Shown here: piece by piece, positions 9,878-42,500 of the stretch | Layout: each line of letters starts with the position of its first letter | How positions within the stretch are numbered: position 1 is the stretch's first letter | From: Adineta vaga | Taxonomy: Eukaryota; Animalia; Rotifera | DNA length: 64,000 nucleotides | Reading direction: 5' to 3' | Assembly: GCA_021613535.1 (NCBI GenBank) | Contig: CP075493.1 | Span: forward strand, 4,464,001-4,528,000 | Notes under the pieces: generated by a model | Databases searched by the model: none | Told to the model about the DNA's origin: nothing | What the model saw: only the letters and a program-made list of their open reading frames with translations | Made by a program: the position numbers and the translations under genes

Positions 9878-12800
9878 ATGGCACACAACAATCGCCTCAC
9901 TCGTTTTACAGATGCAGCAGAAGAGCCTACAAGAGCCTTAACACCAATCAAAGGTTACGAGACAAAAGATTTAGTGTCATTGGAAGAGGCGACTGCTGAA
10001 GTAGATCCACCTATTTCTGATGTCGACAGTATGGTTTGGTTAGCAAAACGTGACTCCCGTAATCCATTAGATGAACTGACTTCCGATGAGTCAGCTTCCA
10101 TTCGGCTTTACACATCGGAATGGCCGGAAACGGAGCAGAGCGTTTATACAATATTGAACAAAAAATTGCGTTCCTCGAGACGACATGAACTTCGACCATG
10201 GTTTTCGTACCTAAAATTATTCTTAACTGCATTGTATAAATTACCATCATTGAAAACAACAATTTGGCGAGGAGTTTCTGGTAATATTGATGAACTTTAT
10301 AAAGAAGATTTTATTTGGTGGGGTTTCAGTTCATGCACTGCAACAATGAAAGTTGCAGAGAAATTTGTTGGTCGTACAGGTGTCCGTACATTATTTATGA
10401 TCGATTGTATCAATGGGAAATCTATTGAGTCACATTCACAATACAAAGATGAAAAAGAAATTTTATTAATGCCAGGTACATTCTTACGAGTTATTGATAA
10501 ATGCAATCCGGCCGATGATTTACACATTATCCGATTGCAAGAGGAGACACCGCCTTATCAACTGATCGCTCCACCATTTACTTCAGCATCAGCATCAGCA
10601 TTGAGTGTTAATACGTCGTCTTTTCAAAAACTGACAATATCCACAAGTGGTGCATCTACAACATCAGTTGGTAAGTTATTTTCTTTCAATAATGAGCAGG
10701 TCAGATATAACTATTCAGTGACTTGGTAAATGAGGTTAGCTATTTTTGTCTCTTATAAATAGAAAATAATAGTATAAGTAGACATAGAGCTTACATAAAT
10801 TATAGAAAACGAAGAAATAATTTCTTGAAATATTATATAAAAAATGAATAAATTTCACAGTATATCACCAGATAAAGTTACTGATTGTCTATATGTTACG
10901 AAAAAAATATGTAGAAGGCGTGTATTTCCCCTGAATCCTTCAAACTCGTTGTGTTTTGGCAACATTGTCATTATACTAGGTGATGATTAAGGATCAGAAG
11001 CTTTTCTACTTATTTGGACAAAAATAAAATGCAGGAAAGACTCGCTTCCAGCCATAAATTGCATATAATCTTTTTAGCTGTTCTTTTTATTCATTTAGAG
11101 ACAAAAAAAACAACGTTTTTATCGAAACCTCCAACATACAAAAATCCAAGACTTGAACAAAAGATCAACGAGAACAAAGACGAGTCTACTATTTTTTTAC
11201 ATTCTTCTAACTGGACGGATGACGATATGGAAATCGTTGCATATTATTTACTACGAGACAATAAGGTCAGTAATATGTTTTTCGTTTTCATCCTTATCAC
11301 TTAGCTGTCGAAAAATGAGAGATATTCCCAGAAAAAGTAATTTTTAGAAGCTACAAAGCGAAGCTACGCTCTGCATGTCAAAAGAATAAATTTAGCAAAC
11401 ATACGTTCGTATGGCTGTTATGACATTTCACAAAGCCCTAAAAGACCTTGTTTGATGAGACAATCTATTTAGAAGCAGAATGATCGCAGATGCAGTATAT
11501 TAATAGTGCGATTAAAACCCTGAATGATTTGATTAATATACAAGGTATGTAAGGAAAGCAGGAATAAATCGCAGTCTATCCCTTTTACCACTTTATATGA
11601 TTCAATGCAGGATACATAGCACTATACTAAAGTACGAGTGTGTATCTGCCTTTTTGTTTCCATGTCAAAGGATACTTCATTGAATTAACTATAGTCGTGC
11701 AAAGATTTGGATGCTTGTGAAAGATCCTAAACAATTTGACATGTTAAAAACTGGAGCAAAATCATAGATTCCTTGCTATAGTATTTTCATAATAAGGTCA
11801 TGATATTCACTAAATATTTTTCTTGTGTATCAAACAAAAGTCAGTTTGCAGTCAGATCATCCAATATTTTGATGGACCTCACAGTTCTTTTTCCTTACCA
11901 TCAGAGCATCTTGGTGATTGGTACGATGCTAAGCTACCTTTCTTTTCCTGGGACATAGCTTTCTAAGATATATTCAGTTGGTATTAGAACATAGGTACTT
12001 GACAACCAAAATCTAACAATTTCAATAATAGCTATATCCATGCAACAGTAGTACAAAGTAAAAGGAACATCGCTAACATTTTCATAGACGAATATGTTTT
12101 TAGAAAATGAGAACTAAATTAGAATGCTACTGTACAATAATCGAGAGAAAATGAATGTGTGAGAGTAGTAGATGCATGGTAACAAAAAATACAATAAAAC
12201 AATAACAATTGTAGCACTTCATAACTTCTATGTATAAGAAAGTTTAATGCGTAAGTGTAAAGCAATATTTTTTCTCATCGGGAAAATGCATGGCACAAGA
12301 GTTGCACTACTACCCGCAAGCAACTACTTGGATTTCATTATGGCCTTGGAACTGAAAATAAGAGAAAAATTTTTCACTCAAAGGCTAAAATTGATACTGT
12401 AATTAAAATATTCAAACTGATCAATAAAACCGATTCAGCTCATACTGTTTTGACCAAAAAATTGTTTTTCAAGAAAGCATTCGTTTCTGAGTAATCTCTC
12501 AATTAGTGACGCTTTTATTAAAACAACTATTTCAAACCACTGAACGAAATCTATCTCTTAAAAAGCACCTTGAGTATCTATTTTTTCTTGTAGCAAATCT
12601 AACGCTAAATTCTAATCGATCTATTTGACGTTATACAAGATAGAAACTTAGTATTTCTTTCCGAATTTTAATTACGAAGAAACCAGATGATACTTTTCTT
12701 TTTCAATCGAATTATTGCGATAACAACTAATTTTCCTGACTTCTGGAACGTTTAAGTGCACGAAGATGATATTCATTTTAGGTACTGATATTAACAAATA

Positions 12801-15800
12801 CTGTCTTCGAAATCATACGCCTAATTATATTTTTATTATCCTGTTTTACTATAAAAATAACAGACACATCTAATACTCTTCGTAGTTTCTGAAATATCTC
12901 CGTTTATCATAATAAGACAAACTTCAAATATCGTCTATACTAGCTTCCAATGTACCAGCAGAGCTAGCTACAACTAAAACATTCAATTTCGCTCATCTAA
13001 ACTGAAACACTCTCCTTCTTATTCCCTAGCAAATAATCATCCTTGAAAAATAATCCATCTGTCATTTTTCTCAACATTTCTCTAAGAACATTTAGAAGGA
13101 GGCACTTCATGCAAACATGAATGTTCAAAGAAATCTCAGTTACTCTTCTTGCTCTATAATATTTTCTCGAAAAGCTTTACAAAAACAAAAGTTTGTCCCT
13201 TTCCCGTTCTCCTTAACGTCACCTAAGCAATTTCCACCAGCAAGATTCCCGAATTCTCGATCTAAAAGGCATCGGGAAACATAAAAACACAACATCCATA
13301 GAAAACAAAAGTAGACAAAATTCATCTCCATCATATTACTTTCTAATTCATTCACCTTTTTTCTAATTAAAAATCTAGTCTTCATTATGATTTCCCAGAT
13401 TTAAACCACAAGTTCATTTCTCTAAATTCACAATGGACCTTCGAATAATATAATACGATACAACTCTATCCGAATACCCCAAAATTACAACATCTTTCTC
13501 TCTCTCTGGTTTCACTCATCTTTCGATCATCTTCATCTCTTTTATTTCATTCAGACACTCACTAGACTCTATCTCAACAACAATCAGATCGGAGACAAAG
13601 GTGCACAAGCATTGGTTGAAGGACTCCAAAAGAACGCAGTGAGACAATATCTTCCTCTCTCTCACTCTGCTTTCACTCATCTTTCGATCATCTTCATCGC
13701 TTTTATTTCATTCAGACACTCACAGAACTCGACCTCAACAACAATCAGATCGGAGACAAAGGTGCACAAGCATTGGCTGAAGGACTCCAAAAGAACGCAG
13801 TGAGACAATATCTTCCTCTCTCTCACTCTGCTTTCACTCATCTTTCGATCATCTTCATCGCTTTTATTTCATTCAGACACTCACAGAACTCGACCTCAAC
13901 AACAATCAGATCGGAGACAAAGGTGCACAAGCATTGGCTGAAGGACTCCAAAAGAACACAGTGAGACAACATCTTCCTCTCTCTCACTCTGCTTTCACTC
14001 ATCTTTCGATCGTCTTCATCTCTTTTATTTCATTCAGACACTCACTACACTCTACCTCAACAAGAATCAGATTGAAGACAAAGGTGCACAAGCATTGGCT
14101 GAAGGACTCCAAAAGAACACAGTGAGACAACATCTTCCTCTCTCCCTCACTCACTCTGCTTTCACTCATCTTTCGATCATCTTTCGATCATCTTCATCTC
14201 TTTTATTTCATTCAGACACTCACTAGACTCTACCTCCGCAACAATCAGATCGGAGACAAAGGTGCACAAGCATTGGCTGAAGAACTCCAAAAGAACACAG
14301 TGAGACAACATCTTCCTCTCTCTCTCTCACTCTGCTTTCACTCATCTTTCGATCATCTTCATCGCTTTTATTTCATTCAGACACTCACAGAACTCGACCT
14401 CAACAACAATCAGATCGGAGACAGAGGTGCACAAGCATTGGCTGAAGGACTCCAAAAGAACACAGTGAGACAACATCTTCCTCTCTCTCTCTCTCACTCT
14501 GCTTTCACTCATCTTTCGATCATCTTCATCTCTTTTATTTCATTCAGACACTCACTACACTCTACCTCAACAACAATCAGATCGGATACAAAGGTGCACA
14601 AGCATTGGCTGAAGGACTCCAAAAGAACGCAGTGAGACAACATCTTCCTCTCACTCTCACTCACTCTGCTTTCACTCATCTTTCGATCATCTTCATCTCT
14701 TTTATTTCATTCAGACACTCACTACACTCAACCTCGGCAACAATCAGATCGGAGACAAAGGTGCACAAGCATTGGCTGAAGGACTACAAAAGAACACAGT
14801 GAGACAACATCTTTCTCTCTCTCTCACTCTGCTTTCACTCATATTTCGATCATCTTCATCTCTTTTATTTCATTCAGACACTCACTACACTCTACCTCTT
14901 CAACAATCAGATCGGAGACAAAGGTGCACAAGCATTGGCTGAAGGACTACAAAAGAACACAGTGAGACAACATCTTTCTCTCTCTCTCACTCTGCTTTCA
15001 CTCATATTTCGATCATCTTCATCTCTTTTATTTCATTCAGACACTCACTACACTCTACCTCTTCAACAAGAATCAGATTGAAGACAAAGGTGCACAAGCA
15101 TTGGCTGAAGGACTCCAAAAGAACACAGTGAGACAACATCTTCCTCTCTCCCTCACTCACTCTGCTTTCACTCATCTTTCGATCATCTTTCGATCATCTT
15201 CATCTCTTTTATTTCATTCAGACACTCACTAGACTCTACCTCGGCAACAATCAGATCGGAGACAAAGGTGCACAAGCATTGGCTGAAGGACTACAAAAGA
15301 ACACAGTGAGACAACATCTTTCTCTCTCTCTCACTCTGCTTTCACTCATATTTCGATCATCTTCATCTCTTTTATTTCATTCAGACACTCACTACACTCT
15401 ACCTCTTCAACAATCAGATCGGAGACAAAGGTGCACAAGCATTGGCTGAAGGACTACAAAAGAACACAGTGAGACAACATCTTTCTCTCTCTCTCACTCT
15501 GCTTTCACTCATATTTCGATCATCTTCATCTCTTTTATTTCATTCAGACACTCACTACACTCTACCTCTTCAACAATCAGATCGGAGACAAAGGTGCACA
15601 AGCATTGGCTGAAGGACTACAAAAGAACACAGTGAGACAACATCTTCCTCTCACTCTCACTCACTCTGCTTTCACTCATCTTTCGATCATCTTCATCTCT
15701 TTTATTTCATTCAGACACTCACTACACTCTACCTCTTCAACAATCAGATCGGAGACAAAGGTGCACAAGCATTGGCTGAAGGACTACAAAAGAACACAGT

Positions 15801-16620
15801 GAGACAACATCTTTCTCTCTCTCTCACTCTGCTTTCACTCATATTTCGATCATCTTCATCTCTTTTATTTCATTCAGACACTCACTAGACTCTACCTCTA
15901 CAACAATCAGATCGGAGACAAAGGTGCACAAGCATTGGCTGAAGGACTCCAAAAGAACGCAGTGAGACAACATCTTCTTCTCCCTCACTCACTCTGCTTT
16001 CACTCATCTTTTGATCATCTTCATCTCTTTTATTTCATTCAGACACTCACTACACTCAACCTCTCCGAGAATCAGATCGGAGACAAAGGTGCACAAGCAT
16101 TGGCTGAAGGACTCCAAAAGAACACAGTGAGACAACATCTTCCTCTCTCCCTCACTCACTCTGCTTTCACTCATCTTTCGATCATCTTCATCTCTTTTAT
16201 TTCATTCAGACACTCACTAGACTCCACCTCTCCATCAATCAGATCGGAGAAAAAGGTGCACAAGCATTGGCTGAAGGACTCCAAAAGAACACAGTGAGAC
16301 AACATCTTCCTCTCACTCTGCTTTCACTCATCTTTCGATCATCTTCATCTCTTTTATTTCATTCAGACACTCACAGAACTCCACCTCAGGAGCAATCAGA
16401 TCGGAGAAAAAGGTGCACAAGCATTGGCTGAAGGACTCCAAAAGAACACAATGAGACAACATCTTCCTCTCACTCTGCTTTCACTCATCTTTCGATCATC
16501 TTCATCTCTTTTATTTCATTCAGACACTCACAGAACTCCACCTCAGGAGCAATCAGATCGGAGAAAAAGGTGCACAAGCATTGGCTGAAGGACTCCAAAA
16601 GAACACAGTGAGACAACATC

Positions 16621-16663
<43 letters not shown>

Positions 16664-16815
16664 GCTTTCACTCATCTTTCGATCATCTTCATCTCTTTTA
16701 TTTCATTCAGACACTCACTAGACTCGACCTCTACAACAATCAGATCGGAGACAAAGGTGCACAATATTTGAAAAAAGCAACAAGAAACAATGATAATATA
16801 ACTCTATGTCTTTGA
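9878..16815 (+). CDS. NAD:arginine ADP-ribosyltransferase (R-S-E clade) fused to an RI/NLRC3-type LRR array; exons 9878-10670, 11099-11265, then 20 LRR exons from 13555 to 16815
   Basis: ART motifs IWRG, FSSCT, EKE. A phase-1 intron (10671-11098) and a phase-0 intron (11266-13554) link in frame via an LRR N-cap-like exon (LHSSNWTDDDMEIVAYYLLRDNK) to 84-nt exons TLTxLxLxxNQIGDKGAQALAEGLQKN(T/A). The terminal exon 16711-16815 ends in TGA. Confidence 0.8.
13488..16765 (+). repeat. Tandem array of 20 exon+intron units (~157-187 bp period): 84-nt LRR exon plus 73-103-nt near-identical intron
   Basis: Exon starts 13555, 13716, 13877, 14038, 14216, 14381, 14548, 14715, 14878, 15041, 15222, 15385, 15548, 15715, 15878, 16043, 16210, 16367, 16524, 16711. 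Each follows ttttatttcattcAG; internal exons are followed by GTgaga except exon 18. Confidence 0.97.
16624..16658 (+). repeat. (CT)n microsatellite expansion in the last LRR intron
   Basis: Long ctctct run; the same position holds shorter CT/CA tracts in the other introns. Confidence 0.9.
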
Positions 16816-18441
16816 GACGTGTAGTATTGGTTTCCAATAGTGTACTTATGTATTGAATCAGAAAAACGCAGTGAAAGTATTGAATTTATTGAAAAATACT
16901 GATGAAATTGTTTCTCTATTTGTTAACATTATGAATTGTATGTTAAAAGGTTGATCGTAGAGGAATAGATGAAAACGATTTTATTTTGCAATTTTTGTTT
17001 TGAAGATTTGCTGATTTATTACATGAAGTTAGATCGATTTGAAACATAGAACTGTTGACATTCGAAGTGTGATTTACATGAGATAGATATTACGTAAAGA
17101 ATTTTCAATGGAAGCAGCTGCTTTATACGATTCGTATTATAAGACAAATTAGAGTGTCTATTTCAAATGAATACTGCACAGGCGTATTTCGCCGATCATG
17201 TTGATTGAGTAAGCTCATATCGTGAAGTAAGCGTGTGAAGAGTTCTAGCAAGAGAAATACGACTGTTTGGGTTTTGTTTTGAACAAAGTAATTTAACGAT
17301 TTGCTCCATTATTGTAATACTGATGAGTGACACATTTGAAATGCACTATTTTTCTGAATAAATATCTCGTGTTTGTTCCGATGTGTCACGGATGATCTAT
17401 GGAAAGGCCATTTGTGAATGGTGTCTCTCTGAATAGAACGACATTATTGCTAAGCATAGAATGCAGAGAAACCTATGATCCGAAGTAGACATGAAGAAAT
17501 ATTTGGAATATCTTTTCGACAATTTGCTACTGTTAAAAAATGTTCAGGTGCAGTTTTCATACGATGCATCGCAGGAAATCTATTTGATTTCTGTTCTCTG
17601 ACAAACTGACTTTAAATTATGATGATTGTCCGTGAACTCAAATGCAGTTCGACAAGAAGCGCACCGACAACCAGTCCTTTGAAAGTTGAAATAGAAAAAC
17701 AAGAAATTTTCCTAATACACCGCTATAAGTTACAATTCAAGATCATAATATGATCTTATAGTCAAAATGCTGTTCGTACATTTGGATTGCTTTCCACTAT
17801 ATTGTCAACTTTGTCTCGTCTTGTTGTCTCCGTAAAAACTTCATATAATAATACGAAATCAATCAATACCACTATTTTTCAAATATAGAAGATTATACAA
17901 TCTCGAGCCGATTATGAGAAAGGAGAAATTATCAATACATTTTGATTTCATTACATTGCTGTAATATTCATAACGACAAAAGATTAAGGTTTGGTATTAT
18001 TTTTTTCTAAAGTATTTTGATACAATCATAAATATTCTAATCATCAAATAGATTATTCTTTCTTTTTCGCATAATAAAAACGTTTCTATCAAATTTGATT
18101 AATGTCTTTTCTTTTTCTCAAATAACAACCATATCGTCAAGGTTAAAATTTATTCTATCACATACTTGTTGGAAAAAAAAGAGAAAAAAATGTTTTGTGT
18201 TTTTTTATTCTCTTGAGAAAAATTTCTTGTTCTTCTCCTAAGTTGCTTTGTATGCAACGTCATGACTGTCTTCCTTTCTTTTTCTATTCGTTCTATTTAA
18301 AGAAAGAAAAAGGAAAAGAATTGAATGGCATACCAAATAAAATAAACTGTACACTTGAAAAACAACAAAGGTAAGAAATCTACCGCTCTCATAGTTAATC
18401 AATAAATAACAAATACACAATTCTAACTAAATCTTCAGATT

Positions 18442-20724
18442 ATGTCTTCATTTCGACCATATCAATGGACTTATCCACAAAAGACTGGAACTGGATTTAC
18501 TATTCTTCCTCGTTTTCCCACTTCAAATACTGATATCGAACAATATTTTTTACAATTAGCAACTCGATTGAAAAATTTTGATATTATCATCAATCATAAT
18601 TTACCATTTCTTTTACATGGACATTTAAAAGAATCGATTCATAGAGTACATAAATTACAATTACATGTTATACATAGATATATAAATAATATCGAACGAT
18701 TTTTAAGAATAATTAATGATAATTCGAATGGTTCACTGAATAGAAAACAACGATATGAAATCGAAAGAGAATTGAATAGTGTTATTAATGATTTAACTCA
18801 ACTATTAGAAAATATACAAACAAAAGCACGATTCATTAATGACTTAGTCGGACAAAATTTCATATATTTAAATGCGGGTCAATACAATTTCAATGAAATT
18901 AACGATGTAGAAATGTTAAAATATCTGTTAATGAAAGATTATAATAATGATCGTATTCTTTGTTCGAATGATATATTAAATAGTAATCATCAATCACAAT
19001 TAAAGATATTAATTCATGAACTTGTTGAAGAACGTAAGAGAAAACCAAATCTACGACTTGTCTATGCTGATTTTTCTAATTCCTTATTCAAATTACATGA
19101 TTTTATCGTACTACCATTCCGAACAAACTCGATTGAAAAACGTCTATTCGTACCAGTGACTAATAATGACACAGTACAGATTCTTTTACTCGGTGAGAGT
19201 GGAATCGGAAAATCCACATTTATCAATGCTTTTATCAACTATCTGACATTTGAAACACTTGAACGAGCACAATCAAAAACACCCGCTGTTGTTATTCCAG
19301 TTGAATTTATGATTACAGTGGGTGATCATTTCGAAGAACATCGAATCAAATTTGGTGAAAATAATGATTCCATGAATGAAGATTTCCATCATCCTGGACA
19401 CTCGGTAACACAACGTTGTAAATCCTATGTATTCAATCTTGGATCGAAAGATAAAAGAAAATTACGTATTATTGATACGCCAGGTTTTGGAGATACGCGT
19501 GGTATTGATCAAGATGAACAAAATATGCAACATATTTTAGAATATATTCATGATTTAACACATTTAAATGCTGTATGTTTTCTTCTTAAACCAAATGTAT
19601 CACGAATAAGTAGTTTTTTCTCATCTTGTCTCAATCAATTATTCGAATTAATGGGATCGAATTTTCATCAAAATATTATCTTTTGTTTCACCAATGCTCG
19701 ATCAACTTTTTACACACCAGGAGATACAGCACCTTTATTAAAAAATATTCTTCATGCACATCCTGTAAAACATATTCCATTCAATAAAGAAAATACATTC
19801 TGTTTTGATAATGAAGCATTTCGTTATCTAGTTGCTTTACAAAATAAAATTCATTTTACCAAAGAAGAACAACAAGAATATGAAACGAGCTGGTTAAAAT
19901 CAGTACAAGAATCTGATCGATTACTTCAATACATTCGTACACAATTGTCAAGTTATCCATTAGATGATACTCAACAATCCATTCAGCATGCTCGAATTGA
20001 AATTCATCAAATGATTCGTCCGATCTTAGAAGCAATGCGAAATCTTCTTCGAAATCGAATTCTATGGAATAGTAGTACTTCGACTAGATTGATTAAATTA
20101 TGTCCACAAGTTATTCAACGGTCAAGTGCATTTTGTAGATCCTGTAAACGAGATGCTTTCCATATAGGTCATTTTTGGATTCTGCCAGACGATGCACATG
20201 AATTTCGAAATAAGAAATGTTTAACATGTTCATGTGCTTTCGATCAACATATCATCATCGATTATATTCTTGGTTATGATACGATGGATTCATCTTTGAA
20301 TGATAACCAACTAGACAAAATCAATGATCTTCTTGAAATATTATGTGCAACTAGCGTGAATTTTGCTCTTTTTCTCAGGGATATGACTCGTTCAGGGAAA
20401 GAAGATCCATTTCTTATTGGTTTAAAACGTCTTCTTCACGAAGAACAACAAATTTGTACAGTTCATCATGAATCAAATCAATACAATTTACAATTAGTCG
20501 AAGAATTGAAAACACTTCTGATTTCTCACGACGAACAAATGACAAAGTTGAAATCGAGAGATTTATCATTTATTTATCAAAAAATCAAAACAACTAAGCA
20601 ATATTCAACTATTCAGGAACAAATGACGGCCATTCATCAACATAGAAGAAAATATAAAAATCAATGTTATGAATTTGAAATTATGAATAATTCGCTTCAT
20701 CGAAAAGCCTTCTCGTTCGCATAA
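18442..20724 (+). CDS. P-loop GTPase (TRAFAC class, septin/AIG1-like G domain) with Cys/His-rich C-terminal region, intronless
   Basis: G1 GESGIGKST, G2 SVTQ, G3 IIDTPGFGD, FCFTN, CFDNE; C-terminal CRSC...H...CLTCSC...H. Confidence 0.85.
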   Translation: MSSFRPYQWTYPQKTGTGFTILPRFPTSNTDIEQYFLQLATRLKNFDIIINHNLPFLLHGHLKESIHRVHKLQLHVIHRYINNIERFLRIINDNSNGSLNRKQRYEIERELNSVINDLTQLLENIQTKARFINDLVGQNFIYLNAGQYNFNEINDVEMLKYLLMKDYNNDRILCSNDILNSNHQSQLKILIHELVEERKRKPNLRLVYADFSNSLFKLHDFIVLPFRTNSIEKRLFVPVTNNDTVQILLLGESGIGKSTFINAFINYLTFETLERAQSKTPAVVIPVEFMITVGDHFEEHRIKFGENNDSMNEDFHHPGHSVTQRCKSYVFNLGSKDKRKLRIIDTPGFGDTRGIDQDEQNMQHILEYIHDLTHLNAVCFLLKPNVSRISSFFSSCLNQLFELMGSNFHQNIIFCFTNARSTFYTPGDTAPLLKNILHAHPVKHIPFNKENTFCFDNEAFRYLVALQNKIHFTKEEQQEYETSWLKSVQESDRLLQYIRTQLSSYPLDDTQQSIQHARIEIHQMIRPILEAMRNLLRNRILWNSSTSTRLIKLCPQVIQRSSAFCRSCKRDAFHIGHFWILPDDAHEFRNKKCLTCSCAFDQHIIIDYILGYDTMDSSLNDNQLDKINDLLEILCATSVNFALFLRDMTRSGKEDPFLIGLKRLLHEEQQICTVHHESNQYNLQLVEELKTLLISHDEQMTKLKSRDLSFIYQKIKTTKQYSTIQEQMTAIHQHRRKYKNQCYEFEIMNNSLHRKAFSFA

Positions 20725-23587: not shown

Positions 23588-25566
23588 TTAAAAGAATTTT
23601 AACAAAATACAAAAAACAATTAAAATGAATTCATTCGAAAATAATACTCTTCTTGCATTGCTTCGAGTAGATGTACTAGTCGATTCGGTTATTGTGATTG
23701 TTGTTGTTGTCGGTGTCGTCGTTGTAGTTGAACTAATAGTTGTAGTAGTATCAGTTGTTGTTGTTGTGGTTACAGTAGTCGTCGATGTCGTAGAGGTTGT
23801 CGTTGTAGTTGTAGTTGTAGTTGGATCGAGAATATCACAAGGTCCTATTTCAATATCATCAAATGCAACTGACACAGGTACATTGACAAGTTGATGAACA
23901 TAGAAATAGATTGTTCCTTCACAAACAATCTTTGGCACAGGTATAACTATAGTTTGCCATCCTTTACTATCATCTAATTTTCGTTGCCAGATACTTTGAC
24001 TATCACAAAGACCAGTCCAAACACTTACTACTGTACCATTTTGATTTTCTACAGATGATTTTACATAATAAGCATATCGTACACACATTCCTAAATTGAA
24101 TTCGACCATTTTTGGCGGAAGGACAACACCAGAATTTCCAGCCATGAAAGGTAATTGACGATTCCAATAAACGAAACCACCAGTTGATGAATTTGTTGTA
24201 TGATCATGAAATGGACCTAATGTTCGATCTGGAATAGTTTCACTAGTTTCGATGGTAAAATTGTATGTTGGTGTAGTATACCGATCTCCATTTTGCATTC
24301 CACACATCGATGAATTATCGAAATTGCATTCAAAAGAGAGAAGCATACCATCGTATGGAAATGTGATTGGAGGATAGGCACATGTTACAGAGAGATCATC
24401 TATAGCAAATGAACGTGGATAAGCTTTCAGAGTATCTACACGAAACCATAATGAATAATATCCAAGCGGTAAATTGATCACACTCCATGTCCTGTATACA
24501 AAAGAACACATTCGATTAATATCAGCTATGATGTATAAAATAGAGAGAATAACTTACCATTTTGCATTTGTATATCTGAAAAGCATCGAAAATCATATTT
24601 ATATATCTATATTCTGTTTGATGTTAGTGAGACTTACATATATTCACGAAACGTTGGTGGCCATATTTGTTGTACTGTTTCAAATGGATCTAAATATCTC
24701 GCATACACTTTTAGATAGCTATAATACTCGACACCAAAGGCATAATAATGAAAATTCAAACAGAAAGATTCATTTGCAGTAATATCGAATTGTGTTCGTG
24801 TAGCTAGATATCCGACATTACCCTGCTCGATTAGTTTCGAGTTTGCAACAAAAGCATAATGTCCTGATTGATTTCCATAGGTGAAATCAAAGGTAGGTGC
24901 TTTCGTTTCTTCTACAATAGCTTCACTTGCCTTCTTTATTAACCATGGATATGGATAATCTGATAATGAAACAAATTCATTGACACAGTTAGATTCAAAA
25001 TCACATGCTAGTAGAGTTTTAGGAGGTTCAGGACGTGGTTCATCGCAGTAATCAATAGATATATCATCGAATGCTAGAGGTTTAACTGAAACATTCGATC
25101 GAATAAATAATTTGAATTTTTCAGCTGGTAATCGAATTTTAACTAGTGTCCAATCGTTAGTCGAAGGATCTTTTCCTGGTATTGATGCGACAATTCGTGT
25201 AAGTTGTTCATCATCACCTTGTACTAATTGAACTGTGAATGGAAAGTCAATACGAGGTGTATAGTACCACATTTGAAAGCATACAGCTCGATCAAGTGGT
25301 AATTGGACCCATTCTTTGGTTTTGATTTCAGCCTCAACGTTATAAAATGGTGGCTGACTTTGTGGACTATAGAAAAGATAGTGTCCAGCACTTGTATTCA
25401 GTGTATGATCATGATTAGTGGGTAGTGGATGAGCACCATCGGTCAAACCCCAATTACTGTCAATGGCAAAGTCGTTACAAGATGTCTCAAAATCACATTT
25501 GAGAATAGCCGTGTTACTATTGTGGAATGTAAATGCACAAAGAGTAAAAAAGAACAATGAAAACAT
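23588..25566 (-). CDS. Cell-surface protein with three MAM domains, Thr-rich stalk and C-terminal hydrophobic (GPI-like) tail; exons 25566-24638, 24575-24558, 24491-23588
   Basis: CDFE/CNFD, DHT...G.Y, CF.MWY, LAFDDI motifs; splicing through an 18-nt micro-exon restores the frame (REY-I-YTNAK-W-TWSVINLP). Confidence 0.85.
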
Positions 25567-25786
25567 GTTGATAGCTTAAGTGTGTTTGTAAAAGAGATGA
25601 TATATATATATATATATATATCGCAGACAATGTGAGATAGGATGTTGCATAGCCGTTGTGCAAGAACAAACCTTGATAGATATGACAATGCAGGATATTT
25701 TATAAACTGATAAGATTAGAAATTGTTTTGCATATGTTCTGCATTATCTGAGATTATAGTAAAGAATTACATGACAACCTTTATTA

Positions 25787-27815
25787 TTAAAATAATGATA
25801 GAAAAAGACAAAAAAGAAAATAAATGAAAAACGTCTGAAATCTATTTGAACAAAATACTCGACGAGCATTGCTCTTTGAAGTTGTTGTTGTTGTTGTTGT
25901 TGTTGTAGTTGATATTGTCGAACCACTAGTAGTTGTCGTAGTATGAATAGTACTACTAGTAGTAGTAGAGGTAACAGTGGTGGTAGCCGGTGTTGTTGAT
26001 GTAGTTGTTGATGGTGATGTGATTGTGGTTGTCGTCGTAGATGTAACTGTCGTAGTTGTAGTAAAAGTATTACATTGATCAATAATGAAATCATCAATAG
26101 CAACTGCCACTGCAACTGGTGTTTTTTGATAAACTGACAAATAGTACGTTTCCATACATACAACATTAGGAGCAAGCAAATTAACAACTTGCCATCCTTG
26201 ACTATCATCTAATAATATGGACCATAAAGTAGTACCAAAACATCCTCCTGTTGTTACACCTAGCATTGTACCATTTTTATCCTTAACTGATGACTTAACA
26301 TAATAAGCAAATCGAATACACATTCCTAAATTTGATACCATAGGATACGCAGTAAATAAATAGCCTAAATCTCCGGAAGTAAAGGGTAGCTGACGTTTCC
26401 AATAACTAAAACCACCAGCTGATGAATTTGTTGTATGATCAAGAAGTGGACCTAAGCTTCGATCTGGGACTGTCTCACCAGTTTTGATAGTAAAGTTGTA
26501 CATTGGTTTCATAAAACGATCTCCAGTCTCCATTCCACACAACGTTAGATTATCGAAATCACATGAAAAGTGAAGTAAACCAGTGTTATCATCTCGAATT
26601 TTGGCTGGAGGATAAGCACATGATGTTACAGATATATCATCGATCGCATAAGAACGAGGAATCATCAGTACTATCTACACGAAACAATAATGAATAGTAC
26701 CCTTCAGGCAAATCTACAATTCCCCAAGTCCTAGGCACGAAAGACAAGAGACACATTAAATTACCATTCTAACTCATTTTTTGTCAAAAGTAAAAACTTA
26801 CCAATTATCACTTGCATATCTGAAAAGAAGAAGATTATGAATGGTAATATATAAGCTGTTTAGTATATCATTCCATCTTACACTTACATATATTGTTGGT
26901 ACAGTGGTGGCCACAATTGTTGTACAATTTCAGGTGATTCATATAATTGTGCATATATTTTCAAATTACCCGATAACATTCGACCATAATTATAATAATA
27001 AAAGTTTAAACAGAACGATTCATTCGCAGTGATATTCAAGGAAGTTTGAAGAGCAAGATACCCAACTATCCTGTTTTGATTGATTTGGAATTAGGAACCA
27101 ACGCATAATGCCCTGATTGATTACCATATGTGTAATCAACGATAGGTGCTTGCCTCTCTACTTTCACAGCATCACTTGCTTTCATTATTGACCATTCGTA
27201 TGGATAGCCGGATAATGGAATGAAATCATTTATACATGATGTTTCAAAAGTACATGTATATAATATTTCCGAAGGAGATGGCAATGGTTCATCACAAACA
27301 TCGATAGAAAGATCATCTATCGCTAGTGGAATAGTAGTCGTATTCAAACGGATAAATAATTTGAATTTTTCAGCTGGTAATCTTATTTTAACTAATGCCC
27401 AATCATTAGTCGAAGGATCTTTTCCTGGTATTGTTGCAACGATTCGTGTTAGCTGTTCATCGTCACCTTGGACTAGTTGAATTGAAAATGGAAGATCAAA
27501 ACGAGGAGTATAGTACCACATTTGAAAGCATACAGCTCGATCAAGAGGTAATTGAACCCATTCTTTGGTTTTGATTTGAGCCTTTACATTATAAAATGGT
27601 GGCTGACTTTGTGGATTATAGAAAAGATAGTGTCCAGCACTTGTATTCAGTGTATGATCATGATTGATGGGTTTCGGATGAAGTCCATCAGTGAAACCCC
27701 AGTTCGTATCAATGTCAAAATCATCGCATATGGTTTCAAAATCACATTTGAGAATAGCTGTGTTACTATTATGGAATGCAAATGCACAAAGAGTAAAAAG
27801 GAATAGTGAAAACAT
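25787..27815 (-). pseudogene. Tandem paralog of the MAM-domain gene with two frameshifts (~27067, ~26660)
   Basis: Same exon structure (micro-exon 26819-26802). Relative to the paralog, 1 nt is missing at G-x-VGYLA, creating TAG, and there is a second shift before PRSYAIDD. Assembly error is not excluded. Confidence 0.65.
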
Positions 27816-28107
27816 GTTGACGGTTTGAGTATGTGTATATGAGAGATAATATATAAATATATATGTCGCTGACAATGTAAGATAAGATATTGCATAGTTG
27901 TCGTGCAAGAACAAAACTTGACACGTATGATAATGTCGAACAATTTATAAACTGATAAAATTAGGCAAATGTTTTATGTATGTTCTTCACTATTAGTTTA
28001 TAAATTCAATTCGTTATTTTTTAAAATATTAGACGAAATTTCCGACTTTTGAATGAGTTTTATTGACACTCTCACATCCGCCAGAAATTTCGTTTTGGGA
28101 AGACATG

Positions 28108-29961: not shown

Positions 29962-31084
29962 TTACCCAGCCCGAGCTTCACGTATGTGTTCATGTCTAAA
30001 ACCAAGTCGAATTTTATTCGATAAATACTGTCTTAAATCATGATTATTTATAAATAAATGTATAACTACACTGCATAAAGACATTTCACATAATAGAACA
30101 GAACATGCATAGATAATTATATCAATATCAATCAGTTGATTGATAATACGAACAAAATAAATTGGACTCCAACCACCAATAAAAGTAGCAAAGACAAAAA
30201 TCATTTGTCGTACTAAAGCTACTTCTCGTGAATTAAATTTTATTTGTTGATTATTATTATTATTCGTTGTTAAAATATCGATAACTTGTGGTTGTATACG
30301 ACGTGATGATGATCGAATATAACGAAATATAAGAGCATTTAAAATAATTGTCGTCATCGAAGGAATAATAATAACCATAATACCCGTATAAATCCGACTA
30401 GAAAGTGGATCACTACAAATCTATAGAAGAAGATTATCAACATTTTCATTACATACTACAATCTTTATTCTAAATATAGTTGTTAATATCCTGAAGGAAA
30501 GGTACTGAAAATAAGAAATATATTCCGTCGTTGTCTACGACCTTATTTATATATTCGATTGATTACATCATTGCACCTAGTTGTGTTTAAGATTTGTAAG
30601 AAATCTCATTTTCAATGTATTCATCTCTATATCAGTAAAATTGACTTACTGAAACTTTGACGAAAATGACTGGTAACGAAAGAAGTAGAACAGTTATCCA
30701 TTGACTTGTAATACATATAATTACCCATCTTTTTGTCTTAAAAATTGGTTTTGTATGATAAACAATAAAGAAAAATCGATGAATAGAAAAAATCATAAAT
30801 CCAAATGGTACTCCAAGACTTGCGAAATTATATGCATAGAATAAAATAAAACATGAAGACATATTGAATAAAACTTCTGGATCATAATAATTTATTGTGA
30901 AATAAGTAATAAAAAAAGTACAACTGGCAATGACAGCTAAACATATATTGAGAATAAACATGTTATTTCGATGACGAAATCGACGAATACATAGAATTAA
31001 TATTGAATATGTTATTGTCAAGATTAGAGCCAATGCTAGAATAGCATCTTGAAGAATAGCAAAGATGAACGACGTATCTGTCAT
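29962..31084 (-). CDS. Divergent class-A (rhodopsin-like) GPCR, copy 1; exons 31084-30650, 30420-29962
   Basis: Seven hydrophobic segments, SIHRF (DRY-equivalent), GWSP in TM6; phase-0 intron verified in frame. Confidence 0.85.
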
Positions 31085-31296
31085 GATATTAAATGGATTC
31101 AGAAGAGTCGATGTTTAAATCTCTTGATAAATTTAGAGAAGAAGAAGAAGAAAACTTGACAGGTGCTTTTAATCTTATTAATAGCTTCTTCCAGTAATGG
31201 ACTTCATGTGAAGAGACAAAGATATTTATATCCTATTGATCATAAAATCTTTATTTAAAAAGAAGACATATACAAATGATTCCATTAAGAAAAGTT

Positions 31297-32422
31297 TTAA
31301 TGTCTGAAATAAAATTGAATCTTATCGGAGATATATTGTCGTAATTCACGATTAAATACAACTAGATTGAACACTAAGCTAAGTGCAGCTATTTCACATA
31401 TTAATACTAAAATTCCATTTGAAATCACGTCAACTGTTATGTATAGATTAACAATATTCGATAGATAAACTGGACTCCACCCAAGAATAAAAATAACAAA
31501 TGTAAATATCATTCGTTGCAATAAAACAATTTCTCGGCGACCGATTTTTCCTTGTTGATTAGAATTAATACCAGTGTTTATCACACTAAACACCTGTGGT
31601 AAAACACGACGAGTCGATGAACGAACATGTAAAAAAATAAGTCCATTCAATATGATATTGATTGTAGAAGGAATAATGATAGTCATTATACAGGCATAAA
31701 CTTGAAAACCAATTGAAATACCACAATACTAAAAAGTAAACTTCATAGAAAAGAACTTTTACTACATCTTAAAGATTATGAATACATCTTTTGAAACGAC
31801 ATGATAAAATACTATCAAGTAATCAGTGCTATTCATTTCACAAATAGAATTGAGTTTAATGAGGATAATAACATTTCGTTTCAATAATTTTAATATTCTC
31901 GAAGAATATTTTCAGTAATAGTGAATCATTTGAATCTTAGCTCTGTATTACTTACTGTGTAACAATTTAAAACAACAAGTAACTTACGGGTTCTGATCGA
32001 AAAACAAATGGTAATGATAAAAAAAATGTTAGAATCCATTGACTTGCAATACATATGATAACCCATTGTCTTGATTTGAAAAAAACTTTAGTATGATAGA
32101 TAATAAAGAAATACCGATGAATAGTAAAAGTAACAAAAGCAAATGGAATGCTTATATTAGCAATATTATTTGCATAAAATAATAGAATACATAAATGTTG
32201 AGCATATAAACGTTGTGGATCAAAATAAGATAATGTAAAATGAATGAAGAAATAAACACAACAACATATAACAGTAAAACAAATGTTGAATATAATCATA
32301 TTATTTCGATGACGAAAACGTTCGATGAAAAGAATTGATATTGATAATAGTATGGCTAAGAATATAGCTATTGCTAATAGACTATCTTGAAGGATGAGAA
32401 ATATATAACTTATATCTGTCAT
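31297..32422 (-). CDS. Divergent class-A GPCR, copy 2; exons 32422-31988, 31728-31297
   Basis: TIHRY, GWSP; same intron position and phase as copy 1. Confidence 0.85.
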
Positions 32423-32594
32423 GATGAAAGTGTAACTAATATGATCTTTGATTTCCAAATAAATGAGGTAAAAGAAGAATGTGAATGTTTTATTCTGCAT
32501 CCTAGATTATCAACACTTATTTCCGTTTGCTTTTTTGAAAGGAATAATTACATATACAAATGTCACAATCAATTCTATTCATCATATTTGTTTG

Positions 32595-33494
32595 TTAACG
32601 TCGAAAGCAATTACGTATTTTATCTGATAAATATTGTCTTAGTTCACGATTATACATAAATAAATTAATAACAATGCCTAAGACACATATTTGACTAAAG
32701 ATTAAACAGATTTGAACAAATTTAAAATCCATATCCATTGCTTCGTAGAAAATACTGATGATAAAAGCAGGTGTCCAACCTCCAACAAACATTGAAAACA
32801 TAAAAATCATTTGTCGTAATAATGCAATATCTCGACGATTGATCACTATCTGTGGATTAATTGCACCACTTGTTGTTGTACTAAGCATTTGAGGATGAAC
32901 ACGACGTGTAGAAGAACGAACATGAAGAAAAATCAAAGTATTAAGTATGAGATTTAGAATCGATGGTAAAACAGCAGCAATTACAAATGTATAGATTGTT
33001 AACCATAATTGATTACCACAATACTAGAACAAAAATTTCGATCTTCTTTACAAAACAAAACTATCGTCACTCACTCGTTTCGATCTGAAAAAGAATGGAA
33101 TTGAAATAACAAATTGAGAGATCCATTGAGAAGCAATACATATAATTACCCATCTTTTCTTTTTGAAAAAAGGTTTATAATGAAATTTCAATAAACATAA
33201 ACGATGTACTGAAAAAGCAACGAATGCAAATGGTACTTCTATACTCGCAACATTAAATGTATAATATAGCAAATTACATATTTGTCGAGGATATTCATAG
33301 TCAGCAATGATAAAATAAACGATAAAGTAAACCCAAGTGATGATAACTGTAATACACATATTGAGTATAAATACATTATATTGATTATGAAAACGTCGAA
33401 TACATATTATTGACAATGTATAGACTAAAGCGACGAGTAAATTGATTGCATATAAACCGCCTTGTAGGATAGTTAAAAAGTCACCGACATTCAT
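32595..33494 (-). CDS. Divergent class-A GPCR, copy 3; exons 33494-33075, 33023-32595
   Basis: SVHRL, GWTP; 51-nt phase-0 intron at the homologous site. Confidence 0.85.
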
Positions 33495-39536: not shown

Positions 39537-42500
39537 CTAAGAAAATAGTGGATGAAGTAATGAATACTCTGGGTGAGTTTCTCGAAGATGTATTATATGT
39601 AAACCATTTCCTGGATTTAATTGTCCAATAACTTGAAATTGAGTAGCAGGTAAAAGGAGAATTTCTTTTTCCTTTTGAAAATATGAATGAGCACCAATTG
39701 ACTTTCCGGTTTTACATTCAATATTAAATAATGTTCGAACACCAATTTGTCCAACAAATCGATTTGATTTGAGATAATGCAATGAATCAGTACAAGAACT
39801 AAATAAGATAAAACGAAATATAGAATGTTACCCGAAAAAAATCATTTTACCTAAATCCCCACCAAACAATAGTTTTACCCACTGGATATTCAGTACTTAA
39901 ATCCATTCGTACACCACGCCATACTGTTTGTTCGACGGATTTCAATTTGCATAGACCAGTTAGAAGAAGTTTTAAATATAATAAATATACACGTAGTTCA
40001 ATTCGATCTTCGGCTCGTAATGCACCGTTAAGTTTTGCATACAGTGATTGACTACCGAATGACCATTCCATTGTATACAATTGAATAGCAGCAGATTCAT
40101 CGTTTGTCAATCCATCAGATGGATTCATACTTCTGTCGAGAGCAATCAATGCATTTTGTTTAATTCTATGTACAATAGAATCGAGATGTTCAACAGCAGT
40201 AACCAATGATACTAATGGTATACTTTCATAACCTTCAATACTAGAAAATAATAGAAAAGCGACATTTTGATTAGGTTAAACTGCGAACGCTATGACATAC
40301 GATAAACGTGATGATTGTCGTTCATATTGAACATCTAAAAACCGTTCCTCTACTTTTGTGTATACTGGAAACTTATCTTCTATAAAAATACATATTATAT
40401 TTACGACTTGAAACTTTTTTCACATTTTGAATCTCAACATGAAAGAATTTCCAATATTCCCTCACATTCACAAACATAGACAAAGTAATAAAAAAAAAGT
40501 ATTCTTACTTGAATTGATAGATATAGATATATCTGAATATTCAGGTGTCGTATGTCTAAGTCAAAGAATATAATCAATCGAATGATTTTTTTATCTTATA
40601 TTATATACCGAATCAGGTTGATTTTTTCAGATGATGGATCAATCTGAATACGATTATCTCTATACCATTTATATCCATGATCATCAACAATCAATAATGT
40701 AACACGACCTTCTTGATGATATGAATATCCGATTAATTGATAGACATCATGTAAAGTTTTCTCCTCAATATTTTGTTCATTTACTTCAATAATGTAATCA
40801 CCATTGTATACTTGTGTATATGCAGCGGGTGATTCTAATTGAAGTTGTTGTATTCGATAGGCTTGATCATTTGTCAATATATTTGTTGCTCGAATTATTT
40901 CAAAACCAAGATCTTTATAATGAGCCCATGACTAATAAATATCATACAAAAGTCAGGATAGAAGAAACGAATGTTCTATTTAACAATGAATACATACTCG
41001 AATCGTACACAGTCGTATCTGTGGATATAATGATATCGATCTATATGTATCTTCATTCGTTACTTCTAATAATAAATGACCATCGATGATTTTAGTCTCA
41101 TCTTGAATTAATGATATCAGTTTATCTAATTTCATTTTAACCACAAGTTGGTTATTCACACGTATGATATAATCTCCAATAGAAAGACCTGCATTACTGG
41201 CTGGTGATAATGGTTTGATAGAAATAATTCGAAATGATATACCTTTTGTTTGTACAGAAAAGCCGTAATTTTCGAAGTTTTGATTTGCTTTTAAACGATA
41301 TTGACGTATGTTTTTCGATGAATTGTGTTTTGATAATTTATTCATTCGTAGAATTTCTAAATATTGTTGATAAATAGTTTTTTCTGCAACTAATAAAAGT
41401 ATTGTTTCATTGTTATTTAGACGATCGAGAAGATTAATTAATTGTTCATGAGTGAAATGTTCAATATTTTCATTATTAATCGATAGAATATAATCATTTA
41501 AATGAAGATTTGATAGATTGATTTGAAAATTTACATCAATAGACGTTATTACATGACTATACAATGAATTTTCATTGGATATTGTATGAAAATTGAAACC
41601 AAAACTATTTGAACATTTTTTAATGATTATAATCCGTGGTTGTGAGGACAATATTGATGATTCTTTAGATTTCGATGTGTTCAATAAAGATGTAGGCTTT
41701 GGATCAGTAGCTAGAATGTGTAGAGAGAAAAAAAAGAGTAGAAATTGAAAAAGAAGAATAAAGTGGTTCATACGACGAGGTGGTGGAATATTTGACGGAG
41801 AAGGTATATTTGGTGGTAGAATACAAACATTTGAAAGTTTTCGATAAATACGTTTGTTTTGTTGTTGATAGTAATGATAAGTTGGAACATCGACTACTAA
41901 CAGTTGTAATGAATTTGGATATTTAATTGCATGAATACGCTGTTTAATTTCTTCATTAGTAAGATTTTCAATATTTTTACCATTAATTTCGATTAATCGA
42001 TCATTAGGTTTTATACCAGCAAGTTCAGCATCTATAACTCATCATCAATATATCTAGAGGTTGAATGATAGTAAAATTCTTACCTGATAATCGATTCTGA
42101 CAACTTGGTACGATATTTAATACATGTGATCGTTCTTTTTGATTATAATCTATAACAAAACCAGGCGGGTCTCTTGAATTAGTTCGTAGAATTGTACACA
42201 ATCGAATATCTTCTTGTAATACTTTAGATAATCATAATTTGAATCTTACTTATTTCGATCAATTCTACTTACTTGATATTTCAGGATTTGATATATGATG
42301 TACTTTTGATGGTTCTGTACGATTTGGTGTAGATTGATTTTTTAATGTCAAATGTTTATTATTCATTTCTTGAAATAGTTTTATCGATTGACTCTTTCGT
42401 AATCCACTTGATGATAAAGGTATTTTGTTTGCTTTAAAATATCTATATGTTTCAGTATCAACGACATATAATTTTACTGAACGTCTTGTCTCGGCTTTAT

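Follow-up and report, generated by a model that had tools for sequence, protein, structure and literature searches.

The locus considered here raises the question of whether recombination within an array of closely similar repeats is aimed at the codons that distinguish them, or passes through these codons only incidentally. The window (the whole 64,000-nucleotide stretch of Adineta vaga DNA that was analysed, assembly GCA_021613535.1, contig CP075493.1, positions 4,464,001 to 4,528,000 of the forward strand) contains an array of one-LRR exons, two of which had been predicted to be chimeras that record unequal crossing-over inside a hypervariable segment. The array likely belongs to a spliced ART-LRR gene, in which an ART exon is joined to 20 one-repeat LRR exons:

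9878..10670, + strand: exon A, predicted ADP-ribosyltransferase (ART) domain, ending in phase 1; assigned from Pfam ART, P0001 homology and motifs
11099..11265, + strand: exon B, linker and LRR N-cap, ending in phase 0; located by tblastn with P0001 residues 267-321
13555..16815, + strand: array of 20 exons with one LRR apiece, comprising 18 exons of 84 nt, a single 87-nt exon and the terminal exon
16451..16452, + strand: donor of intron 18, AT and not GT; a broken donor or a sequence error

Exon A matches the Pfam ART family (E 1.1e-8, above the cut-off), and is 70% identical to the ART-LRR protein P0001. Arginine-specific ARTs of the R-S-E type are defined by an Arg, a Ser and an E-x-E motif, and the predicted ART domain carries this set as R131, W-x-GFSS at 147 and E192-x-E194 (EKE at 192). 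Exon B is flanked by AG and GT, and its 3' end is spliced onto an LRR exon in a contig of public run X12. The LRR exon so joined is unlike exon 1 of the window and appears exon-8-like (an indirect table reading); elsewhere in X12 a similar exon follows one ending in ACA, an order absent from the window, which may reflect another allele or exon skipping. The 2.3-kb intron between exon B and the array (11266-13554) resembles the unit introns in its last 68 nt alone. Within the array the unit period is ~163 nt, and each exon encodes one 28-residue LRR, with Pfam LRR_6 matches; 18 of the 19 internal exons are 84 nt long and all are in phase 0, as are the introns of 73-103 nt, and units are ~90% identical as DNA. 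Contigs of X14 and X12 contain a spliced joint that skips 94 nt with GT..AG ends; as the unit ends are alike, this joint supports the exon boundaries generally, and not intron 10 specifically. The predicted protein has 887 residues, provided that intron 18 is spliced. Retention of that intron would shift the frame to an early stop, while introns 5 (14300-14380) and 15 (15962-16042), each 81 nt, are open in frame and could be retained without loss of the frame. Donors in related arrays comprise 618 GT and 2 GC, as counted by a finder that admitted these two forms alone. In the terminal exon, contigs of X6 and X7 differ from the window by one base within 16766-16790, either an allele or an error. 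Unit-like sequence also occurs in other contexts, including five DNA runs with a unit intron joined to a 255-nt flank, the listed letters of which have no match in the window, and six runs with a diverged exon type (loose ends 15156 and 15061).

Around the array, the window contains further genes, the first of which begins beyond the exon 20 stop:

18427-20724, + strand: ORF of 765 residues that immediately follows the LRR gene and contains an AIG1/septin-like P-loop GTPase region
39847-40275, - strand: another ART-like gene, of which 168 nt are 67% alike to the first

Tandem gene duplicates occupy 23721-27993 and 29986-33396, among them a pair with 73% likeness across 2 kb and a cluster of short membrane-protein-like ORFs that are 65-74% alike.

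Sequence differences between the repeats of the window are concentrated in codons 4, 6, 8 and 9, which hold 16 extra codon alleles, 14 of them residue-changing; the other 24 codons hold 10, of which seven change the residue. Among 509 related exons from the arrays listed, positions 6, 8 and 9 have entropies of 2.6, 3.7 and 3.8 bits, respectively, and positions 15 and 26 likewise reach 2.6-2.8 bits across families. In the structural model of P0001, strands occupy repeat positions 4-6, with positions 8-9 just behind, at a pLDDT of about 70-95 for the LRR part; the ART part (residues 1-278, pLDDT under 50) was set aside as unreliable. Ribonuclease inhibitor is the PDB entry that P0001 matches best, and the repeats are RI-type. 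In this predicted fold, variation is centred on exposed strand and loop positions. The variability at codons 4, 6, 8 and 9 likely reflects point substitutions retained by selection and, by analogy, the variable positions may bind a ligand, such that the protein would act as an intracellular sensor with an ADP-ribosylating effector.

The two chimeric exons lie in a patch at 15063-15576, the anatomy of which is as follows:

14057..14236, + strand: upstream copy of block A, from within exon 4 (14038-14121) through intron 4 (94 nt) to nt 21 of exon 5
14731..15069, + strand: upstream copy of block B, from within exon 8 to nt 29 of exon 10, including intron 8, exon 9 (14878-14961) and intron 9
15041..15127, + strand: exon 10, 87 nt, beginning TLTTLYLFNKNQIEDK, a 29-residue repeat with an exon-9-type 5' part and an exon-4-type 3' part
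15063..15069, + strand: junction 1, 7-nt overlap of blocks B and A with a 3-nt shift, from exact matches; exon nt 23-29, codons 8-10
15128..15221, + strand: intron 10, the same 94 nt as intron 4, 11-nt duplication included
15222..15305, + strand: exon 11, 84 nt, with an exon-5-type 5' part and an exon-8-type 3' part
15238..15242, + strand: junction 2, in register, within the 5 nt that separate the markers at exon nt 16 and 22; exon nt 17-21, codons 6-7
15238..15576, + strand: block B, downstream copy; 3' part of exon 11 to nt 29 of exon 13
15632..15714, + strand: intron 13, of intron-7 type amid exon-9-type exons, with switches in conserved DNA

Two exact matches account for this arrangement, one of 180 nt between 14057-14236 and 15063-15242 (exon 4 nt 20 to exon 5 nt 21, equal to exon 10 nt 23 to exon 11 nt 21), and one of 339 nt between 14731-15069 and 15238-15576 (exon 8 nt 17 to exon 10 nt 29, equal to exon 11 nt 17 to exon 13 nt 29). 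No exact match in the array is longer than the latter, for which chance is thus excluded. The 514-base patch is made wholly of these two upstream copies, and the block order A, Y, B, A, B is that of a tandem duplication without its middle. The net gain is three in-frame repeats in 507 bp (exons of 87, 84 and 84 nt, introns of 94, 79 and 79 nt); the array minus 15070-15576 has 17 exons. At junction 1, six of six diagnostic sites to the left are of exon-9/intron-9 type and nine of nine to the right of exon-4/5 type, so that the assembled letters indicate a clean switch and not a blend. The reading frame is intact across the patch, and the extra residue in exon 10 lowers its LRR_6 score to 19.3 bits (below the cut-off of 23.4), from 30.7 in exon 9. 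Exact copies elsewhere in the array bring the overall range to 133-339 nt, and the unit copies among them, of 156-180 nt, show that the array is turning over. In the assembled sequence, the original prediction was right about the length, parentage and one-codon offset of exon 10, about the identity of intron 10 with intron 4 including its duplication (from parsing of the array), and about the two parts of exon 11, for which the direction of copying is ambiguous. Its two mosaics are not separate events, as both mark the ends of one copied block; and its breakpoints, placed at codons 7-9, in fact span codons 6-10.

We consider it moderately likely that the patch at 15063-15576 arose through recent homology-driven exchange between misaligned units, which added three in-frame repeats and was not targeted to the variable codons. 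The route would be an unequal crossover, or repair synthesis with template switching between misaligned repeat units; the exchange between units that had been predicted is upheld, whereas crossing-over as its specific form is, on one haplotype, indistinguishable from such repair. At junction 1, an exon-9-type strand end (codons 8-10) would have been unable to pair in register with exon 4, and may have shifted back by one codon, to a perfect 7-nt match in the AAC-rich stretch; this would retain both codons, and produce the 29-residue repeat. Junction 2 would be an ordinary in-register switch. Under this mechanism switches would be spread along the whole unit at about equal per-base rate, and if exchange is that frequent over the whole unit then variable residues would be reshuffled without being aimed at. 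The patch is probably a by-product of recent turnover in the array of a hypervariable one-LRR-per-exon family.

Three other readings compete with exchange of this undirected kind. One holds that codons 6-10 are the target of breaks or switches, and that recombination is the main source of new binding faces. In the window itself this has some appeal, as no identity intervals are shorter than the two that hold the junctions (5 and 7 nt, where the median for uniform crossovers is 33 nt). A single detectable crossover would fall within nt 9-30 by chance in 7% of cases with intron markers (31% with exon markers alone), and two free draws at 7% each amount to 0.5%. Painting of the window by minimum switches under three cost settings, a procedure in which junction 1 enters three times and junction 2 twice, and which does not separate repeated substitution from switching, assigned to nt 9-30 a share of the switches (13 of 31, 9 of 17 or 9 of 15) above the uniform expectation. 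Junction 1, however, is not a free draw: exact out-of-register runs (+-3 nt) of at least 6 nt among the 18 window exons are confined to the AAC-rich codons at nt 20-29, and this micro-repeat is the sole place where such a match is available. The painting also places switches of units 2, 3, 5, 13 and 18 in conserved DNA (e.g. intron 13), and informal inspection of the unit alignment brought no candidate signal sequence to notice. A copying model in which each site had its own mutation rate, applied to distinct related units with introns of 59 nt (152 of 157, five outliers dropped), gave a switch rate at nt 16-27 (codons 6-9) of 0.036 per base, 0.98 times that of the other seven bins, with all eight bins at 0.02-0.06 per base. 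Simulated ratios, in 12 runs each, were 1.01-1.88 under uniform switching and 1.49-2.52, 1.81-4.13 and 3.27-5.53 under two-, three- and five-fold enrichment, respectively; two earlier simulation sets were dropped for calibration (diversity 0.38 vs 0.11; switch rate 0.01 vs 0.035, with a uniform range of 0.66-2.58). Among clean two-parent mosaic exons in 59 related arrays, none of seven breaks in nt 9-30, where 21% are expected (p 0.36, not significant), while linkage disequilibrium across the variable segment was r2 ~0.02 even within 6 nt (ratio 1.05, 0.39-2.03), in a test without power. A recombination hotspot in the variable segment is not supported in the related arrays, which are metagenome contigs of other organisms, presumed bdelloid (ART matches in 9 and exon-B matches in 6 of 131 loci, among those listed), many of them maybe from the same populations. 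Chimeric repeats can arise in short-read assemblies of similar arrays, according to available sections of 10.1101/2025.01.13.632504, and would raise the background and thereby dilute a real hotspot. Directed switching is in our judgement very improbable. What stands of the corresponding claim is that recombination generates new combinations of variable residues; the preference of breakpoints for the hypervariable segment does not, as in the related arrays the breakpoint analysis that the original prediction called for found no concentration there.

A narrower alternative, which we regard as improbable, makes exon 11 a parent and not a product: exon 8 would be a mosaic of exons 16 and 11, or exons 5 and 11 would be related by one substitution and a crossover in conserved DNA, and in either case only junction 1 would lie in the variable segment. 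Exon 8 is indeed a perfect mosaic of exons 16 and 11 with its switch in the same interval as junction 2, hence the ambiguous direction of the latter; exons 5 and 11 are set apart by a single codon-8 base, with the next difference at nt 68, and two X12 contigs ending at 15267 appear, by an indirect reading, to share a GGC-type 3' part behind different 5' parts. Nevertheless, one switch accounts for exon 11 with no added mutation, and the end of block A coincides exactly with the start of block B. The remaining alternative is that neither the 87-nt exon nor a second 94-nt intron exists in the animal, through the joining of length-variant alleles out of register during assembly, or through a chimeric molecule in the library. 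A patch composed entirely of exact copies of upstream sequence would suit such an artefact, and a consensus at an ambiguous indel could, we reason, keep both alternative codons. A second oddity occurs in the window, namely the AT donor of intron 18; the one-base difference in X6 and X7 suggests that other alleles or loci exist; and the tendency of short-read assemblies to create chimeric repeats is, as noted, documented. The perfect split of the 15 diagnostic sites at junction 1 is, conversely, unlike a mixed consensus, the frame remains open, and the overlaps are just 5 and 7 nt. Graph assemblers join on words far longer than this. An artefact is unlikely on balance, though far from negligible, and the undirected exchange described above remains the reading that we prefer.

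The reality of the patch deserves separate comment, as the junction facts were established on one assembled sequence. Contigs from public runs (8 of 24 runs, 15000-15300) contribute listed pieces that contain neither the 87-nt nor the exact exon-11 junction, and such contigs drop variants, so that this absence carries no weight. The sole contig over junction 1, in X1, lacks the 3 nt and has the exon-4 form, as exon 4 itself would yield; the other seven runs have zero contig cover at 15070-15076, exon-4 form included, after a filter that removes records. Contig depth was discarded as a measure of copy number, as its values disagree (X2, 3.0, patchless array; X7, 4.1, window; X3, 2.6-4.5). Across at least 90 related arrays, chosen by one canonical exon, 509 of 512 distinct exons are 84 nt long and the other three are last exons, so that no internal 87-nt exon occurs among the 512 in the arrays listed, a point in favour of an artefact. 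Of nine double-spaced gaps that were rechecked, eight held 84-nt exons, and one (L009) resembles an insertion, with apparent additional residues immediately behind the strand, in the segment that also carries the insertion of exon 10. Taken as a whole, we judge it quite likely that the patch is a real event.

Chimeric exons by themselves are an expected product of concerted evolution in a repeat array, and the family to which these belong outweighs the two junctions in importance, as it fuses hypervariable one-LRR exons to an ART enzyme in bdelloids. Among longer homologues of exon A, 32 of 75 also carry LRR_6, and all organism-named matches are to bdelloid genera; the related arrays of 84-nt-exon LRRs form a large family, with up to 23 exons per contig, and A. 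vaga itself holds at least one further locus of this unit family. Hypervariable positions 6, 8 and 9 recur in L003, L022-L025, L051, L117 and others, some of them behind an ART domain, and in L003 a block of about nine exons is present twice. How largely asexual bdelloids defend themselves against parasites is an open question. If bdelloid ART-LRR proteins are sensor-effectors, then their binding surface could be re-dealt within few generations by repair-driven template switching, slips in AAC stretches (which would give new loop lengths) and exon skipping; we regard this as doubtful, and yet if true, it would give a largely asexual animal a recognition repertoire that is heritable and built by recombination. 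Because every unit is individually marked, long reads from clonal lines would give a direct measure of array turnover at this locus. Expanded LRR families with proposed roles in defence have been described in A. vaga (available sections of PMC3846280). The ART-LRR family is not described in the sections available of PMC12957317, PMC3417536 and 10.64898/2026.10.17.759577, and no paper on bdelloid ART-LRR exon arrays was found in a mainly open-access literature, taken without supplements.

The combination of one LRR per exon with turnover of the exons is already known from brown algae, ciliates and NLRs. No NACHT or NB-ARC domain was found in exon A or in the Pfam list of P0001, and ROC-COR is absent from the gene model (ART, linker and LRR); because the defining NTPase is lacking, the rotifer gene is neither a ROCO nor an NLR. 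NOD/NLRC proteins possess a NACHT domain. The germline VLR is an incomplete gene, completed in somatic cells by copying from separate cassettes, and in a comparison with VLR-like assembly, made on the genome assembly only, the window gene is complete. The likenesses that follow are drawn from the available portions of the sources cited. Brown-algal LRR-ROCO genes similarly combine one LRR per exon, exon shuffling and a fused enzyme domain, with diversifying selection on exposed residues (PMC3341825; PMC11378527), but their exons are of 72 nt and 24 residues and accompany a ROC-COR GTPase, whereas the rotifer has 84-nt RI-type exons behind an ART (PMC3341825, the main text of which does not contain the words breakpoint, unequal, chimeric or gene conversion). 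In Tetrahymena LRR genes, near-identical exons occur at different places, and exon/intron units are turned over by unequal crossing-over or conversion; these exons are 90 bp long, in phase 2 and retrotransposon-linked, unlike the 84-nt, phase 0 exons of the rotifer (PMC6564038). Vertebrate NOD/NLRC genes share one 28-residue RI-type LRR per exon and a frame that survives exon skipping (PMC6642158), and differ in their NACHT domain, none being found in the rotifer gene, the units of which are ~90% identical as DNA. The het-d/het-e genes of the Podospora HNWD family resemble the array in near-identical repeats homogenised by unequal exchange, in four hypervariable positions, in the gain, loss and shuffling of repeats, and in chimeric repeats as a known assembly artefact; they encode WD40 repeats of a fungal NLR with a tested ligand, in contrast to the intron-separated LRRs seen here (10.1101/2025.01.13.632504). 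Junctions of short microhomology between LRRs, read as slippage or break repair, are likewise found in a Flavobacterium psychrophilum locus that, unlike ours, is bacterial and intronless with many broken gene fragments (PMC10392669). With exons of equal length and the same phase, and units duplicated and exchanged within the gene, the rotifer locus is an array of the shuffled, one-LRR-per-exon type.
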